NCBI GenBank assembly: GCA_965197745.1
Contig: CBDANS010000007.1
Span: 1 to 64,000, forward strand
Origin: Opitutales bacterium
Lineage (GTDB): Bacteria > Verrucomicrobiota > Verrucomicrobiia > Opitutales > PNEW01
Length of the DNA: 64,000 nt
Direction: 5' to 3'
How positions within the stretch are numbered: position 1 is the first letter of the stretch; each line of letters opens with the position of its first letter. Below are positions 25,912 through 53,070 of this stretch, in pieces. The notes below the pieces were generated by a model. That model was not told where the DNA came from, made no database searches, and was given only the letters and a program-made list of their open reading frames with translations. Position numbers and translations under genes: made by a program.

Positions 25912-26282
25912 GTAGGAAGCTGGGACGAAACGCGTTCATTCGAGAAGTCGTTCGAATTGAACTCAACTCTTTCAAAGTTAAAACTGTAACCTTCAGGTAA
26001 ATCTCGCACTCTGGCATCATCTTCTGTAAGCACTATACAAGTGGTTCCACGCTTCCGTAGAATCTCAAGCGTATTGGTGAGGAAGGAGTCGCTTACGCTT
26101 CCTCCAAGAAATAGATTACCACCTGCAGTTCGAAGTACACATTGTTTCGGATTTTCTGCATCATCCACTAGAGCGCAACCTGGGCAGCGACCATCCAAGC
26201 TTGCGAACAACATTCCGTCATTCGGACAACCAACTCCAAATAGATCTTTCAATCTTGTGTCAGTGAGGGGAAGTTCCCGCAT
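25912..26282 (-). pseudogene. cassette gene truncated by IS3 (possibly GNAT-type N-terminal part)
   Basis: Starts 19 bp after an attC core; runs into the IS right end. Confidence 0.55.
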
Positions 26283-26300
26283 GGTCTCTGATTATTTGAT

Positions 26301-26364
26301 ACACAACGTCCGAGCTCAGCAGCGAGGCCCGCAGGGCCTTGTCGTCGGGAGCGATTTGTTAAGC
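26301..26364 (-). other. integron attC site
   Basis: Minus strand GCTTAAC aaatcgctcc...ggccctgcgggcc...tgagctcggac GTTGTGT. Confidence 0.85.
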
Positions 26365-26835
26365 GCTAGCATTTTTTACATGACCTTTGGAGCGCAGCAA
26401 CCCATAAATGGTGAGCAGCAAAGCCGCCAAGATGGTTACAGCGCATAGCAGGAGCAGGTTGGTGACGACTGGATTGTCGACACCATGTGGTGGCGGAAAC
26501 TTTTCATTCAGCGTCGGCATGAGTTTCGACGAGGATCCCATGAAGGCCGCCGCAACTCCCGCTGCGCCGTTGGTCCAAGTGCCAATTTGCAGCGTGGCAA
26601 ACCAAACTTTAAATGCGGTCGGATTCGAGCGGAGTTTATTGACCAGCAAGCCAAGTGCCACCATTAAAATACCGTTGGCAGTGAACTCAATGTGAGCCAT
26701 CACGATTCCGCGAAACCACGCCACAGCTGAGGTCGGAATTATTCCGATCACGCAGCCGACCGTAATTTGGACAACCCCTAGAATCAAAGTCCAATGCATG
26801 AGATTTTCTTTTAAGTTGTCGACATCAGTTTTCAT
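26359..26835 (-). CDS. styrene-oxide-isomerase (StyC)-like membrane protein, gene cassette
   Basis: Four hydrophobic helices, GIVMAHIEFTANGILMVALG; stop overlaps attC R''. Confidence 0.6.
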   Translation of the reverse strand: MKTDVDNLKENLMHWTLILGVVQITVGCVIGIIPTSAVAWFRGIVMAHIEFTANGILMVALGLLVNKLRSNPTAFKVWFATLQIGTWTNGAAGVAAAFMGSSSKLMPTLNEKFPPPHGVDNPVVTNLLLLCAVTILAALLLTIYGLLRSKGHVKNASA

Positions 26836-26857
26836 ATTTTTGCTCCCTTGGTTGAGC

Positions 26858-26913
26858 GCCTAACAAGTGGTTCTAAAGTTCTGCATATTCGCGTATGAGG
26901 ATAATGTGTCAAC
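26858..26913 (-). promoter_or_regulatory. attI-like leader, copy 1
   Basis: Minus strand ttgacacattatcctcatacgcgaatatgcagaactttagaaccacttGTTAGGC. Confidence 0.6.
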
Positions 26914-26942
26914 GTTGATAACTGATAAATACACGAGAAGCC

Positions 26943-27011
26943 AAAAGGGGTCAGGTTTCGCAATTTAGCAAAAGTAATAAAAATGCTTAGATGCGAGGCC
27001 TGACCCCTTTT
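26943..27011. repeat. GGGGTCAGG...CCTGACCCC inverted-repeat mini-element
   Basis: aaaaggggtcaggtttcgca...tgcgaggcctgacccctttt. Confidence 0.75.
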
Positions 27012-27126
27012 GCATTTTCAATGTCATTTTTCAGAAAACTTTTCGGGTTGGGCCCAAACAAGATGCAATTCTTCTATAGGGCAAATCCTATTGATTAGTG
27101 ATCTATTTTCAGTTTCGTGATGAATC

Positions 27127-50549: not shown

Positions 50550-51122
50550 TTAAGAGGGGTTGCCTCCCTTGATTGGTTTTTCCTTGGATCTCTTGATTGC
50601 GTCGATTATCAACGAGGCAAAGCCAAATTTCCCGTACCTATTTCGGTGGTCAAGTTTCGATGAACGGTAAACTGGGGCTTCGTCTACGTTCCATTCGTTT
50701 AAATGAAATCTACCTTTTTCATCGTGATACTCAAGAAGCCTGACTTCAAATTCAGCCGCCTCAAATACCTTTACTAACTCTCTATATCCGTAGACTACCT
50801 TGTGGTTCGCTGCCGGATGGTCCCTAGGACCTGGGCCACCTACTTGCACCCATCTTTGGTATTCTTCATCTGGGAAGTGCCTATCAGGTACGGCGACGCG
50901 GATGAATCCTCCCGGTTTCAAATAGGCGAATATAGTCTTCGCGGCTTTTGCTCCTTCCTCAACGGTCAAATGCTCGAACACATGTTCGCAAAGCAAGGCG
51001 TCCGCTCGTTTTTTACCGAAGAACCTTTCCCAAGAGCTGGGATCCAGTAGATTCAGCTGATCTCCCTGGGTGGCCACCCATCCATCCCATTCCTGCATTC
51101 CAGCGCCAATGATGACTTTCAT
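50550..51122 (-). CDS. SAM-dependent methyltransferase-like protein, gene cassette
   Basis: VIIGAG, CEHVFEHL, LKPGGFIRVAVPD. Confidence 0.85.
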   Translation of the reverse strand: MKVIIGAGMQEWDGWVATQGDQLNLLDPSSWERFFGKKRADALLCEHVFEHLTVEEGAKAAKTIFAYLKPGGFIRVAVPDRHFPDEEYQRWVQVGGPGPRDHPAANHKVVYGYRELVKVFEAAEFEVRLLEYHDEKGRFHLNEWNVDEAPVYRSSKLDHRNRYGKFGFASLIIDAIKRSKEKPIKGGNPS

Positions 51123-51123
51123 T

Positions 51124-51178
51124 GTATAACGACTAAACTAAGGTGCTAGTCGACGTTGCCTGTACTGTCTTGTTCGCC
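51124..51178 (-). other. integron attC site
   Basis: Minus strand GGCGAAC aagacag...tagtttagtc GTTATAC immediately before an ATG; internal pairing weak. Confidence 0.55.
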
Positions 51179-52259
51179 CCTGTTTTTTCGATACATGACA
51201 TTTGATTGGTTTTCAGCCAGCAAAAGCTTTCTACAATCTTTGTCCTTCAGATAAATGTCGAAAAATTCGACAATCACCGCTCCCAATCTTTCCACGCGTT
51301 CCTTCGGGCGAAATGAAATTAACGATTTGGCCTCTTTAGCGCCACTGTTCATAGGGAAGATAGTTGGCAGTCGAAAAATTGTTATGGTCCCAACCTTCGA
51401 AAATCACGAAATTGAATTCCCCATTAAAGTCTTTGGCATCGTCAGCGAACAGTTGAGCGATTCCATCCAAATTTGGTCTGCCTCTAATTCTCAGCATCGG
51501 GGAAAAGCTACTTCTGAGTTTTCTCTGTGTGCTTTCCGGTCATCGGTTAATACCCGATGTTCCGTCATTCGTCATATAGGCATAGAGAAATCCGTCGATA
51601 TTTACGGCTGCTTTAATTCTTTCATCCTCGGCGTCGAGTAATGTGGAGACATAGCCACCGCGAGAATGCCCAAATATGCCGATAGTATCTAGATTGACGG
51701 CATTGGCCAGCGCCTCGGGGGAATTGCTTCCGAAAATGAAATCGAGGACTTTCTGAGCATCAACAACCCGATCTTCAGTCATTTTAATGAAATCGTCAAC
51801 ATCTGCGATTTCTATGCAAAGGTGACCGTTGGGGTATGTGATCAGGATTCCTTCATGAGGATGGTCTATTGAAACAATGACATAACCCGATAATACAATC
51901 TGCCTGAGAACCGGAAGGTTTGAAAAGCGATTTCCATTTCCGGAAGGCGAGTACAAAAGCAGCGGATAGGGATTTTGCCCTGAAAGCAGTTCGGCGTTCT
52001 CATAGCACCCGGTTGCGATCTTCATTGAGTCTTCAATGATTCGCCCCTTATCCCCTTCGGATAGAAGCGTGCCATTCAGGATACAGTCAAGTGCTGGTTT
52101 TATGGAAGGCCTGAAGAGGTCAATGTACATCATCTCACGCGAGACCGCATCTCGTGAAGCCGGATAAAAGATCGAAATCGGTATCGTTCTTGAAGGATAC
52201 GAAGCAACAGAACTTCGGTTGCCATCTTCGATAAAGCAGTGTTCAACGCCTACATCCAT
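51146..52259 (-). pseudogene. alpha/beta hydrolase (PAF-acetylhydrolase-like) with internal stop and frameshift
   Basis: SIDHP, GHSRGG, NIDG; after TGA 51540-51542 the frame continues to GWDHNNFS; C-terminal FFDIYLK is in another frame. Confidence 0.78.
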
Positions 52260-52304
52260 CTGATTGTATGCTTCTCATGTCGTGGGAATCTCATTTTCTG
52301 GTGA

Positions 52305-52375
52305 ACCTACCTGCAAGCTCACTGGATTTCACGGAGCGTAGCGGATTGTAGTACCAGTGAAGCGCCTTGTTAGCG
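52305..52375 (-). other. attC site with mutated core (GGTAGGT)
   Basis: Minus strand CGCTAAC aaggcgcttcactgg...ccagtgagcttgca GGTAGGT. Confidence 0.7.
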
Positions 52376-53008
52376 ATTCTCATCCTTCCTTGCAAGCATC
52401 AAGGAATGGCCTACATCTCCTTCAGGAATGAACTTATCCCAAATAATCACAAAACCTGTTTCCTCAAGCCATTGAATGTAAGTGTCACGATCAGCATGAC
52501 TCCAATACATATTGGCGCCGTCAACCCCAAGCCAGTTAGCTTCTTCACCTGTCCATTCCCGCTGACCTGCAGAAAGAAGAAACAGGTTCTCAGGTTTCAA
52601 CCATGTCCCTATCCTCGCCAGGAGTTGTCGTTGCTGTGCAAGCGGCACATGGATTATGGTATAGAGGCAAACTACAGCATCGAAACCTTCGGATGCAAAG
52701 TCCATTTCGCATATATCACCCCAGACAAATGATGCATCTGGAACCAGTTCTCGTGCCCGTTCAATTTGCACCGTAGATATGTCAGCACCGGTAACCTTGA
52801 ATTTCTGACTCAACAGTTGTGTCGTCGGCACACCGCAACCACATCCAAGATCTAGAACAGAACATCCTTCTTCCAGCTGAGCTGATAATTCGTCAATCCA
52901 GCCTTTGTACTCCTTGTAGCTCTCACCTGACTTCTCAGGATTGTCTTCACGGTAGGCGAAAGAAACCTTGTCGTAACCTTCTCTTACAATATCCTTTGGG
53001 TTGCTCAT
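52370..53008 (-). CDS. class I SAM-dependent methyltransferase, gene cassette
   Basis: VLDLGCGCG, LYTIIHVP, LKP; stop overlaps attC R''. Confidence 0.9.
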   Translation of the reverse strand: MSNPKDIVREGYDKVSFAYREDNPEKSGESYKEYKGWIDELSAQLEEGCSVLDLGCGCGVPTTQLLSQKFKVTGADISTVQIERARELVPDASFVWGDICEMDFASEGFDAVVCLYTIIHVPLAQQRQLLARIGTWLKPENLFLLSAGQREWTGEEANWLGVDGANMYWSHADRDTYIQWLEETGFVIIWDKFIPEGDVGHSLMLARKDENR

Positions 53009-53015
53009 GTCTTAT

Positions 53016-53070
53016 CACTATCAAGTGATTCTAAAGTTCTGTGTATTCGCGTGTGGGGATAATGTTATCA
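53016..53070 (-). promoter_or_regulatory. attI-like leader, copy 6
   Basis: Minus strand aacattatccccacacgcgaatacacagaactttagaatcacttGATAGTG. Confidence 0.55.

Follow-up and report, generated by a model that had tools for sequence, protein, structure and literature searches.

The DNA that we analysed (a stretch of 64,000 nucleotides, hereafter the window) carries an integrase-less integron cassette array, or CALIN, of a marine Opitutales bacterium. In the best reading of this array, two kinds of cassette boundary alternate: hairpin attC sites and a lineage-specific double-stranded module that we call the leader. An integron docking site seems to have been multiplied and orphaned here, with about 20 copies in a genome that has no integron integrase. 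The explanation we favour, to which we give about an even chance, is that the leader is an attI-type site that is double-stranded, carries a sigma-70-like promoter and spread through the arrays like delta-attI and attI-ORF-attI cassettes, its multiplied units being stable because the integrase is absent.

An integrase-less array with ten attC sites had been predicted, and the array stands. With a covariance model of our own we found five strong and four weaker attC sites, all on the minus strand, the five strong ones being members of the model's training set (Table 1). A degenerate hairpin lies at ~52305-52369 (by eye); nine to ten sites by the model plus this hairpin come close to the number claimed. 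In leader-bearing loci (250 kb) the model made 20 matches, three of which are training members, versus 0 in 236 kb of unrelated loci. The attC sites near leaders lie on the same strand as the leaders, and their L-box pairs show compensatory changes. At the GNAT cassette, R'' (GTATAAC) is complementary to the preceding junction GTTATAC at 7/7 positions, and at the candidate at 49063..49119, R'' (GCTGAAC) matches the preceding junction GTTCGGC at 6/7. Whole cassettes are common to the two sister genomes (G001 and G002) at other places, with homology stopping at or near GTT: it stops one base past GTT at the attC at 26301..26364 (G002), and the orthologues of the attC at 51124..51178 share its GTTATAC end in both sister genomes and diverge after it.

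About 20 small minus-strand genes had also been expected. The array region holds 25 minus-strand ORFs of at least 68 aa, six of which exceed 340 aa, so the genes are there but not all are small. The region also contains three IS4 copies, the first with 92% identity to copies in G001, and one plus-strand PhyH gene. The IS3-family element at its downstream border has dozens of copies in G001 and G002 (83-92% identity), and the 83-nt hairpin repeat recurs in the leader cluster of G001 and at locus L036 (78-97% identity, mostly at least 86%).

Table 1. Coordinates of array features in the window; the last row gives positions at other leader-bearing loci.
Feature	Position	Strand	Evidence	Remarks
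IS3-family element	24431..25912	+	HTH_21 and rve_3	bounds array downstream
attC of 158-aa cassette	26301..26364	-	54.9 bits, training member	R' GTTGTGT
158-aa ORF	26359-26835			cassette headed by leader copy 1
Leader copy 1	26862..26918	-	nhmmer E 9.7e-18	TTGACA present; GTT 26864-26862
83-nt hairpin repeat (AAAAGGGGTCAGG...CCTGACCCCTTTT)	26937..27019	.	fold	just upstream of leader copy 1
IS4-family insertion sequence, copy 1 of 3	28486..30083	+	DDE_Tnp_1, E 4.5e-22	direct repeat D1
IS4-family copy 2	32983-34581	+
attC of HIT-cupin cassette	36073..36139	-	47.0 bits, training member
HIT-cupin	36134-36808		Pfam	cassette headed by leader copy 2
Leader copy 2	36821..36874	-	nhmmer E 2.9e-16	5' (-35) part replaced; GTT 36823-36821
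Leader copy 3	37061..37100	-	sequence read	degenerate; GTT 37063-37061
Weak attC candidate	38833..38896	-	16.1 bits, E 0.15; fold scan agrees	behind polyprenyl synthase gene
attC behind HIT gene	39947..40019	-	21.4 bits, E 0.006, non-training	R' triplet decayed to TTT
attC of GNAT cassette	41139..41227	-	47.2 bits, training member
attC closing three-gene cassette	41688..41744	-	47.9 bits, training member	L box compensatory pairs
Leader copy 4	43791..43807	-		last ~17 nt only; GTT 43793-43791
MITE	43817..43962	.	inverted terminal repeats of GGGGTCAGGC..GTGTATTTAT family	within upstream part of leader copy 4
IS4-family copy 3	46902-48496	-
Very weak attC candidate	49063..49119	-	11.6 bits, E 2.2	between kinase-like and HAD-like genes
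attC of HAD cassette	49632..49716	-	40.8 bits, training member
HAD hydrolase	49721-50428			cassette headed by leader copy 5
Leader copy 5	50450..50502	-	nhmmer E 4e-16	TTGACA-17-GAATAT; GTT 50452-50450
Weak attC	51124..51178	-	16.3 bits, E 0.13	R' GTTATAC
212-aa methyltransferase	52370-53008		Pfam	gene after leader copy 6
Leader copy 6	53020..53077	-	nhmmer E 7e-17	most upstream; full core; GAT 53022-53020, not GTT
Leader copies with attC-like hairpin directly 5'	L042 12459, 16452; L043 14156, 18615; L232 4827, 14131; L233 7229

Leaders had been placed at six positions, each given as the final base of the heptamer after the leader, and all six hold: on its minus strand the window has four long copies and two that are degenerate. 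The long copies were recovered with nhmmer at 26918-26857, 36874-36815, 50502-50446 and 53077-53015 (E 1e-16 to 1e-17). A pattern for the 19-nt core has four minus-strand matches in the window versus 0.01 expected, and 0/100 shuffles gave four or more. The conserved core is ~58 bp long and ends at GTT: directly after the triplet, an alignment of the 49 unique copies of three genomes drops in information content to 2-3 from 8-9 (scaled digits). Of the 52 nhmmer matches in these genomes, 50 run to the model's 3' end, with 5' starts that vary from position 5 to 79. As predicted, the leader is non-palindromic. As single-stranded DNA the six copies fold no better than shuffles (minimum free energy 0 to -4 kcal/mol), with z from +0.65 to +1.8 in five and -1.09 in copy 6, whose hairpin includes post-junction bases.

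The leader also carries a promoter-type sequence resembling those of sigma-70, TTGACA-17 nt-G/AAATAT. TTGACA is exact in 27/49 unique copies, the spacer is 17 nt, and in the second hexamer A2 is kept in 44/49 and T6 in 48/49. With this second hexamer scoring 3/6, the leader went unflagged in a simple promoter scan.

The individual copies differ in their state of preservation. The triplet of copy 6 looks like a point change in sequence, because another GAT copy has an orthologue in G001 that reads GTT. The 3' part of leader 1, its cassette and the attC are 96.8% identical to a stretch in G002 (L035 7409-8010), where R'' reads GCCTAAC and pairs 7/7 with GTTAGGC. Truncated copies 3 and 4 keep the crossover-proximal end as 11-17-nt remnants. 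Copy 4, with an E of 3.3 by nhmmer alone, heads a 2.1-kb three-gene cassette (41694-43768; DegT aminotransferase, deacetylase fragment and 179-aa ORF) that G001 and G002 share as a unit at 77-78%. The MITE beside it was recognised from inverted matches that pair 43817(+) with 43962(-); elsewhere in the genome there are five further pairs of this kind. Copy 3 was not reported by nhmmer and, judged by eye, looks as if it has an internal deletion. A 77-aa ORF, which appears to be the N-terminal fragment of a methyltransferase, follows copy 3 and runs into copy 2. The claim that copy 2 truncates a methyltransferase is weakly supported: this ORF matches the methyltransferase at 40472-41125 around SAM motif I (BLASTP E 0.002, 26 residues), and Pfam gave no match for it. 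Leader 3, this ORF and leader 2 form a leader-ORF-leader unit, and the attC at 51178-51124, a 190-aa methyltransferase fragment and leader 5, in which the fragment ends, form an attC-ORF-leader unit.

The GTT of a leader is expected to pair with R'' of the next attC if cassettes were inserted as at attI. In the window at least 6 of 7 positions are complementary in 4/4 testable cases: 7/7 at leader 5 (GTTAAAT versus ATTTAAC of the attC at 49716) and 6/7 at leaders 1 (GTTAGGC versus GCTTAAC), 2 (GTTATGC versus GTATAAC) and 4 (GTTGGGT versus TCCCAAC). The one exact and three single-mismatch pairings that had been predicted are thus all there, the chance of matching at least 3 of the 4 variable positions being ~0.05 per junction. 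Across genomes, 5/29 cognate pairs are exact at 7/7 versus 21/786 (2.7%) non-cognate pairs (binomial P ~1e-3). In G001, many leaders are followed by GTTGTAAGT..., a four-helix-bundle unit, and at L042 5508-6521 in that genome an isochorismatase cassette with its attC sits between the leader's G and TTGTAAG, which gives a filled/empty pair; a second attC-TTGTAAGT junction lies at L042 10749. In another filled/empty comparison (own genome 2047181 versus G001 38349), R'' of the cassette fits the junction poorly, at 1 of 4 variable positions. Because of the complementarity in the window and across genomes, and the filled/empty pair in the sister genome, the data support cassettes having been joined to the leader as IntI would join them at attI. 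The complementarity would hold at any cassette boundary; it marks GTT as a cassette junction and is not proof that an integrase binds the leader.

The original prediction, in which six leaders each head a sub-array, was too local: the leader is a genome-wide repeat with 21 copies in its own genome (nhmmer). The two sister genomes have additional copies, which brings the matches to 52 across three genomes, and the leader occurs on 7 marine metagenome contigs. It was not found in any other of ~185,000 species genomes. We detected no intI near the 21 copies of its own genome, at the ~31 sister-genome loci or near the 8 copies on metagenome contigs, and tblastn of the leader-bearing loci, the 7 contigs included, found none. 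No gene passed the TIGR02249 cut-off in its own genome or in three relatives of its family (G001, G002 and G003), and the family's three well-assembled genomes all lack a gene for IntI. Within the order, 92/401 genomes have intI, and no leader-like sequence was found around 33 of these loci, so an attI origin could not be traced. A leader never found beside intI had been named beforehand as evidence against an attI, and no copy adjoins intI. Among the histories proposed, accretion and spread of attI-bearing units fits better than a separate loss of intI from each of six independent integrons.

The leader might instead be mainly a promoter and 5' leader before accessory genes, native to units of the four-helix-bundle protein PF05635 and spread by duplication and homologous recombination; GTT would then be a favoured secondary, attG-like target for cassette insertion by a foreign IntI, and the leader would be no dedicated attI. 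We consider this rather unlikely. The promoter-like hexamers are conserved, but the best-conserved block is the ~25 nt from the presumed start site to GTT, beyond the two hexamers, and copies 3 and 4, which lost the promoter, still stand at cassette junctions. A four-helix-bundle cassette is the leader's commonest neighbour, the leader often lying directly 3' of its weak attC; most of the 22 units of the GT[AG]AGTAAAACAAT type are directly behind a leader, one of them, intact, codes for a protein with PF05635 (E 4e-20), and leader variants co-vary with the downstream unit. In the leader's own genome, however, only 2/14 PF05635 matches are behind a leader. That neither intI nor an attI-like relative was found agrees with a reused promoter, and the sources consulted mention both cassette insertion at non-attI genomic sites (Loot et al. 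2024, mentioned in PMC12901181) and near-identical promoters before unrelated genes (PMC3575422); yet more than 20 different cassettes are joined at the identical G|TT, far more specific than scattered secondary sites.

An origin inside an attC is improbable in our view. Here an attC, first that of the four-helix-bundle cassette, would have gained ~115 bp by insertion or expansion between its L' arm and its R' triplet, this extra DNA being the leader, and leaders would have spread because the cassette with the modified attC spread. At least seven copies (Table 1) have, immediately 5' of the leader, a weak attC (17-26 bits), an attC-like hairpin with R'' TCTCAAC. Some four-helix-bundle units begin with GTTGAGA, to which this R'' is complementary; the leader GTT could be the displaced R' of the weak attC. 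Most copies, however, have no attC half upstream, and the contexts upstream form at least three groups that are not related to each other. In four 'mini-junction' copies without a leader the hairpin runs directly into ...TTTAGCATTACTTGTT, and in the long form the extra DNA lies between the two halves of a 10-nt direct repeat (TTTAGCATTA / TTTAGAATTA); the right-hand repeat is not a target duplication, since it belongs to the conserved leader whatever the context. The insert may derive from the GGGGTCAG-ended MITE/IS4 family, and the flank 5' of the leader is similar to a MITE family's terminal repeat, but the leader itself lacks terminal inverted repeats. A distance of more than 100 nt from L' to R' should prevent the usual fold, yet different cassettes follow different copies, and the composite site would still need to be recombination-proficient. 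The alternative named beforehand, in which the leader would be the terminus of a group IIC-attC intron or of an insertion sequence that targets attC, is very improbable and largely refuted. Such introns insert in attC, and their outward promoters drive expression of the following cassette (in the part of PMC3001079 consulted); ends of MITE and IS4 elements are concentrated on the 5' side of the leader. In the window only a tRNA reaches the Rfam gathering score, neither a reverse transcriptase nor a transposase gene is a constant neighbour, the conserved core measures no more than ~58 bp, and upstream sharing extends at most ~390 nt within groups (752 nt in one orthologous pair) and is absent between groups.

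In the favoured explanation, an attI-type recombination site would have been copied through the arrays. The leader ends exactly at G|TT, the triplet where integron integrases exchange strands; in this reading it would derive from an attI, IntI would have acted on it, and it would close some units in place of attC (attC-ORF-leader, leader-ORF-leader). Each copy may then be a docking point for further cassettes and, with its putative promoter, would probably transcribe those docked. Genomes of the family lack IntI, and therefore many attI-ORF-attI-like units could persist; present-day mobility, if any, would need an integrase in trans.

To our knowledge, CALINs are defined by attC sites alone and carry no attI, whereas here an attI-like site is interspersed among the attC sites and multiplied. 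In its co-oriented attC sites, small unrelated genes and lack of intI nearby or in the genome, the array is like CALINs, described in the consulted part of Cury et al. 2016 (PMC4889954) as attC clusters without an integron integrase. IntI recognises attI sites such as attI1 as double-stranded DNA by sequence (PMC11023631, in part). The leader is like them in being non-hairpin and ~60 bp long, in its GTT crossover triplet end and expected R'' complementarity, and in the putative promoter upstream of the insertion point; unlike them it is neither beside intI nor single-copy, and it has no similarity to 33 sampled intI flanks of the order. Group IIC-attC introns, in the passages seen of Leon et al. 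2010 (PMC3001079), are 2-kb ribozyme retroelements in the attC bottom strand with outward promoters. They too are boundary elements that supply a promoter (here putative) to the downstream cassette, but the leader is ~58 bp and has neither intron domains nor a reverse transcriptase. As with attG secondary sites (Loot et al., Nat Microbiol 2024, mentioned in PMC12901181) and putative mobile promoters (PMC3575422, in part), insertion of cassettes can occur outside integrons and near-identical promoters precede unrelated genes; unlike these, the leader is one conserved sequence used at one exact position and not a loose consensus scattered over the genome. The closest likeness is to delta-attI-type and attI1-ORF-attI1 cassettes of class 1 and class 2 mobile integrons, as far as the consulted sections of Gonzales Machuca et al. 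(Sci Rep 2026, PMC12901181) describe them. There, a double-stranded attI-derived site replaces attC at the cassette 3' end, giving the attC-ORF-delta-attI and attI-ORF-attI forms that our units resemble; truncated versions keep only 14-18 nt adjoining the crossover, much as copies 3 and 4 do. Excision and insertion of such units by IntI1 are possible; for full-length duplicates, which are very rare, that paper gives a single natural case, and it puts excision of attI1-aadB-attI1 at ~100%. Clinical delta-attI sites come from the attI of a resident, known integron class, whereas the leader has no known integrase or traceable parent attI; and unlike the very rare full-length clinical duplicates, it has at least 20 full-length copies per genome, with a promoter-like sequence.

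The genome comprises 4.45 Mb on seven contigs and is 92% complete; the window is the opening 64 kb of contig C7. Nearly all genes between 25.9 and 53.1 kb are encoded on the minus strand, and their products are small, unrelated enzymes (methyltransferases, HIT, GNAT, HAD, glyoxalase and DegT aminotransferase proteins), with a few bigger genes, three IS4 copies and MITEs interspersed. Eight attC sites picked by hand from three genomes fit the classical pattern (R'' xxxxAAC, L'' CGCT.., L' ..GAGC, R' GTT) and show compensatory changes in their L-box pairs. A covariance model of attC, built from eight sites, gave five strong matches in the window, which are its own training members, and four weaker ones, namely one site beyond the training set (see table) and three further candidates, all on the minus strand. 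Across the leader-bearing loci (250 kb) the model gave 20 hits, 3 of them training members and always on the strand of the leaders, compared with none in 236 kb of unrelated loci. The attC sites of the array are real. The original prediction of an integrase-less cassette region is borne out by nine co-oriented matches to our own attC model and no intI, the arrangement of a CALIN (at least two co-oriented attC close together with no intI nearby).

Three other attC scans were set aside. Demanding R''/R' complementarity inside a single site yielded nothing useful because R' in the array belongs to the next cassette, a structure-only scan was unspecific, and a genome-wide banded-match scan was abandoned when the reversed control outnumbered the real hits.

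Coordinates of leaders, the additional attC, mobile elements and repeats (window positions unless a contig, C, or an extracted locus, L, is named)
Feature	Position	Strand	Remarks
Leader 1	26862..26918	-	
Leader 2	36821..36874	-	
Leader 3	37061..37100	-	
Leader 4	43791..43807	-	
Leader 5	50450..50502	-	
Leader 6	53020..53077	-	
attC beyond the training set	39947-40019	-	covariance model, E 0.006
IS3-family element	24431-25912		borders array; transposase split into an HTH_21 ORF and an rve_3 ORF
MITE copies	43817-43962; C4 147377-147470; C7 1118603-1118728, 2030590-2030735, 2042035-2042179, 2056951-2057096		
PF05635 gene with mirror-image repeat arrays	L042 4894-5060 and 16614-17160 (G001); C6 753527-754043 (own genome)		
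Short repeat, ~187 nt	30077-30263		many copies in G001 at 89-95%
Short repeat, ~108 nt	44054-44160 / 28397-28465		after 532-aa gene, before BNR gene

The leader is a repeated non-hairpin module with a conserved core of ~58 bp whose 3' end lies at G|TT. Its 19-nt core pattern matches the minus strand four times, against 0.01 expected. A profile made from the window copies detected 21 genomic copies (E < 1e-3) in six areas on two contigs, and a longer profile found none beyond these. The six leaders of the original prediction are present in the region but are not a local peculiarity, and six in one region and 21 in the genome depart from the single attI of an integron platform. With up to two mismatches the core pattern occurs 17 times in the own genome and 14 and 8 times in the sister genomes G001 and G002; 38 other genomes of the order gave just two matches, both doubtful and both in one genome (G007). 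A pattern scan of ~185,000 species genomes returned 66 stretches, among which nhmmer confirmed leaders only in the record of G001; two matches in Puniceicoccales proved to be unrelated sequence. For metagenome contigs, 80 of the 87 matching stretches were examined, and seven marine contigs carry real leaders.

When 49 unique copies were aligned, conservation extended from ~8 nt 5' of TTGACA through GTT and was lost abruptly beyond it. Likewise, 50 of 52 nhmmer hits extend to the 3' end of the profile, and their 5' starts are scattered over model positions 5-79. The leader is not an attC, because its single-stranded folding is no better than that of shuffled sequence (MFE 0 to -4 kcal/mol; z +0.65 to +1.8 in five of six folds); our attC model gave 12.5 bits (E 1.2) at leader 1, on the opposite strand. 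The lack of an attC-like hairpin is what is expected of attI, which acts as a double-stranded site.

The original prediction held that the leader core pairs with R'' of the next attC, and all four testable cases in the window agree at six or more of seven positions. The junction heptamer (seven nucleotides beginning with the leader GTT) is fully complementary at leader 5 and complementary at 6/7 at leaders 1, 2 and 4, where two mismatches are potential G·T pairs and the third is outermost in the heptamer. For the leader-1 cassette, the orthologue in G002 has the exact complement. Over three genomes, a structurally plausible attC bearing the exact 7-mer complement was found in 5 of 29 leader-headed stretches, a count that leaves out four-helix-bundle-type junctions and any copy lacking GTT or followed by <200 nt, compared with 21 of 786 (2.7%) in a non-cognate control. 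Many G001 leaders directly precede GTTGTAAGTAAAACAAT..., the start of a unit that encodes, when intact, a PF05635 four-helix-bundle protein. G001 also provides a filled/empty pair, in which an isochorismatase cassette with its own attC sits exactly between the leader G and TTGTAAG (L042 5508-6521); this is the product expected from attI x attC insertion. A second attC-TTGTAAGT junction lies at L042 10749. Cassettes are thus joined as they would be at attI: the joint falls at G|TT within a GTTRRRY-type core, and the cassette start is complementary to its own R''. The leader GTT is a cassette junction, as R'' complementarity proves; this complementarity, which holds at any cassette boundary, is no proof that an integrase binds the leader. 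What all the evidence has in common is that it places the leader 3' end within an integron-type recombination junction.

Leaders also stand at the far ends of units. Leader 5 closes a unit that begins at the weak attC 51178-51124 (attC-ORF-leader, 51178 to 50450), and a 77-aa methyltransferase fragment runs from leader 3 to leader 2, which closes it (leader-ORF-leader, 37063 to 36821). Leader 4 is interrupted by a MITE. Leader 6, which has GAT instead of GTT, heads the array; the flank that it adjoins shares synteny with G001 (90%).

Parts of the window, either one cassette or a block, reappear elsewhere in G001 and G002 at 77-99.7% identity (flank, ~90%), and at the places examined (26305, the unit 41694-43768 and the attC ending GTTATAC at 51124) the breaks fall at GTT or a few bases beyond. 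Contigs of run X6, from another sample, leave 49634-52315 uncovered: they break off at 49633 and 52316, close to attC ends, and none bridges the gap; this may be a cassette-block polymorphism. The uncovered stretch holds three genes, leader 5 and a HAD cassette. In contigs of four DNA runs, the joints between leaders have sides of 21-36 nt that match other repeat copies and are uninformative. Contig depth at 43.9-45.2 kb is 5-15x that of the surroundings in three runs. A 1.43-kb BNR-repeat segment (27067-28493) is 99.65% identical to G001 L041 4993-6420 between syntenic flanks of ~90%; it is not a cassette, because neither end coincides with an attC or GTT junction (one is an IS4 insertion), and looks like a recent transfer via another route. 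A 1.1-kb plus-strand block with short-chain dehydrogenase and cupin genes (53328-54433) is absent from the otherwise syntenic G001 flank (L036 9143-9147).

Several mobile elements accompany the array. The bordering IS3-family element has inverted ends of ~132 nt and dozens of copies in G001 and G002. The MITE family (~95-150 nt; terminal inverted repeats GGGGTCAGGCTGTGTATTTATAGATT) has six paired copies in the genome. The MITE has a GGGGTCAG terminus in common with an 83-nt hairpin repeat and with the IS4 ends, so that a single transposase may mobilize these three; they are often located immediately 5' of leader cores. The PF05635 gene is flanked by mirror-image arrays of 8-nt repeats (AATCGAAATCGGGATCG / CGATCCCGATTTCGAT), which are left behind in some four-helix-bundle copies that lost the gene. 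The four-helix-bundle unit behaves like an integron cassette with a weak attC; at L235 4518-8284 (C6 752517-756283) it lies with a leader, both in inverted orientation, inside a plus-strand cassette array, where a plus-strand attC begins 6 nt from the 5' end of that leader.

We searched for an integrase and a parental attI. TIGR02249 returned nothing above cut-off in the own genome, in G001 (a single closed contig), in G002 or in G003, the third relative in the family; the best matches were two Xer-like genes (~80 bits). Among 401 sampled genomes of the order, 92 carry intI, and all three relatives in the family lack it. In tblastn with three Opitutales IntI, the leader-bearing loci, metagenome contigs included, contained no integrase, and only two Xer-like genes, both distant from leaders, were hit. 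Conversely, nhmmer --max at E 10 detected no leader-like sequence at 33 intI loci of the order (L023-L026, L203-L231). Thus, no leader copy in these genomes and loci adjoins an intI, which is one of the outcomes that the original prediction itself listed as refuting it, and the parental attI cannot be named. In G031, the region upstream of intI has, by eye, TTGAC and ...AACTTGTT spaced 52 nt apart as in the leader; we take this likeness as chance, as an nhmmer search up to E 100 gave no match in that region.

What, then, is the leader? Part of it resembles a promoter. TTGACA is exact in 27 of the 49 unique copies, and a second hexamer, G/AAATAT, follows after 17 nt with A2 kept in 44 and T6 in 48 copies. 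More than 20 different sequences lie downstream, so that a near-identical promoter-like sequence stands before unrelated genes, as for a putative mobile promoter. A simple σ70 scan did not flag the leader and found no excess of promoter-like sites in the region (28 vs 24.5 in shuffles). The leader might be a reused promoter module that was struck at a secondary site, a reading we regard as rather unlikely.

The upstream sides of the leaders fall into at least three groups: (i) the 3' end of the four-helix-bundle unit, with its own weak attC (R'' TCTCAAC, 17-32 bits), which immediately precedes the next leader in seven copies or more and whose hairpin, in four copies without leader, joins ...TTTAGCATTACTTGTT directly; (ii) a conserved non-coding stretch of 75-185 nt; and (iii) ends, oriented either way, of the MITE family or the 83-nt hairpin repeat. 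An insert within attC seems doubtful to us as the origin of the leader, more so than the promoter module, and both remain serious alternatives. The end of a group IIC-attC intron or IS (such as an IS1111-attC element), an origin of the kind that the original prediction had itself raised, is very improbable: Rfam at gathering score returned only a tRNA in the window and no group II intron, and no long sequence, element or gene is shared upstream of the leaders.

The reading that we favor, to which we give about even chances, is an attI-type, promoter-bearing site that would have been copied along with cassettes through the arrays. A much more speculative extension is a distributed integron, in which a marine Opitutales family would have replaced the single intI-attI-Pc by dozens of promoter-coupled attI-type sites over several chromosomal arrays. 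A non-resident integrase, from co-occurring bacteria, plasmids or phages, would load and shuffle cassettes in trans, and each captured cassette would be expressed from its own promoter. In textbook integrons, expression is limited to cassettes near the single attI and Pc, the others being silent stock. An array with many promoter-bearing attI-type sites would, if real, express numerous cassettes together and provide many docking points. Integrase-less genomes may also be a natural experiment in what builds up once excision ceases, and the leader offers a concrete, testable substrate for attI recognition by IntI of non-proteobacterial lineages. If instead the promoter-module reading is right, the leaders would be a clear case of cassette capture outside integrons, at one recurrent site.

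Among the open-access papers searched, we found none that reports a full-length attI-like site multiplied within a chromosomal array, the only related matter being work on CALINs, delta-attI, attG and group IIC-attC. An attI-type leader would mean that attI sites can themselves multiply, moving with cassettes, previously known just as rare oddities of clinical integrons. The nearest described counterparts are the delta-attI-type cassettes, which are recombined by IntI1 and retain the crossover-proximal part of attI, and a single natural attI1-ORF-attI1 cassette, both from clinical integrons. Full-length attI1-ORF-attI1 units are rare there, and soon lost, because IntI1 excises them at ~100% (PMC12901181). 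A lineage without integrase could let such units pile up, and for this reason we lean, at even odds, toward the multiplied attI-type site; if the leader is the attI that we infer, 51178-50450 and 37063-36821 have the delta-attI/attI-ORF-attI architecture of those clinical cassettes.
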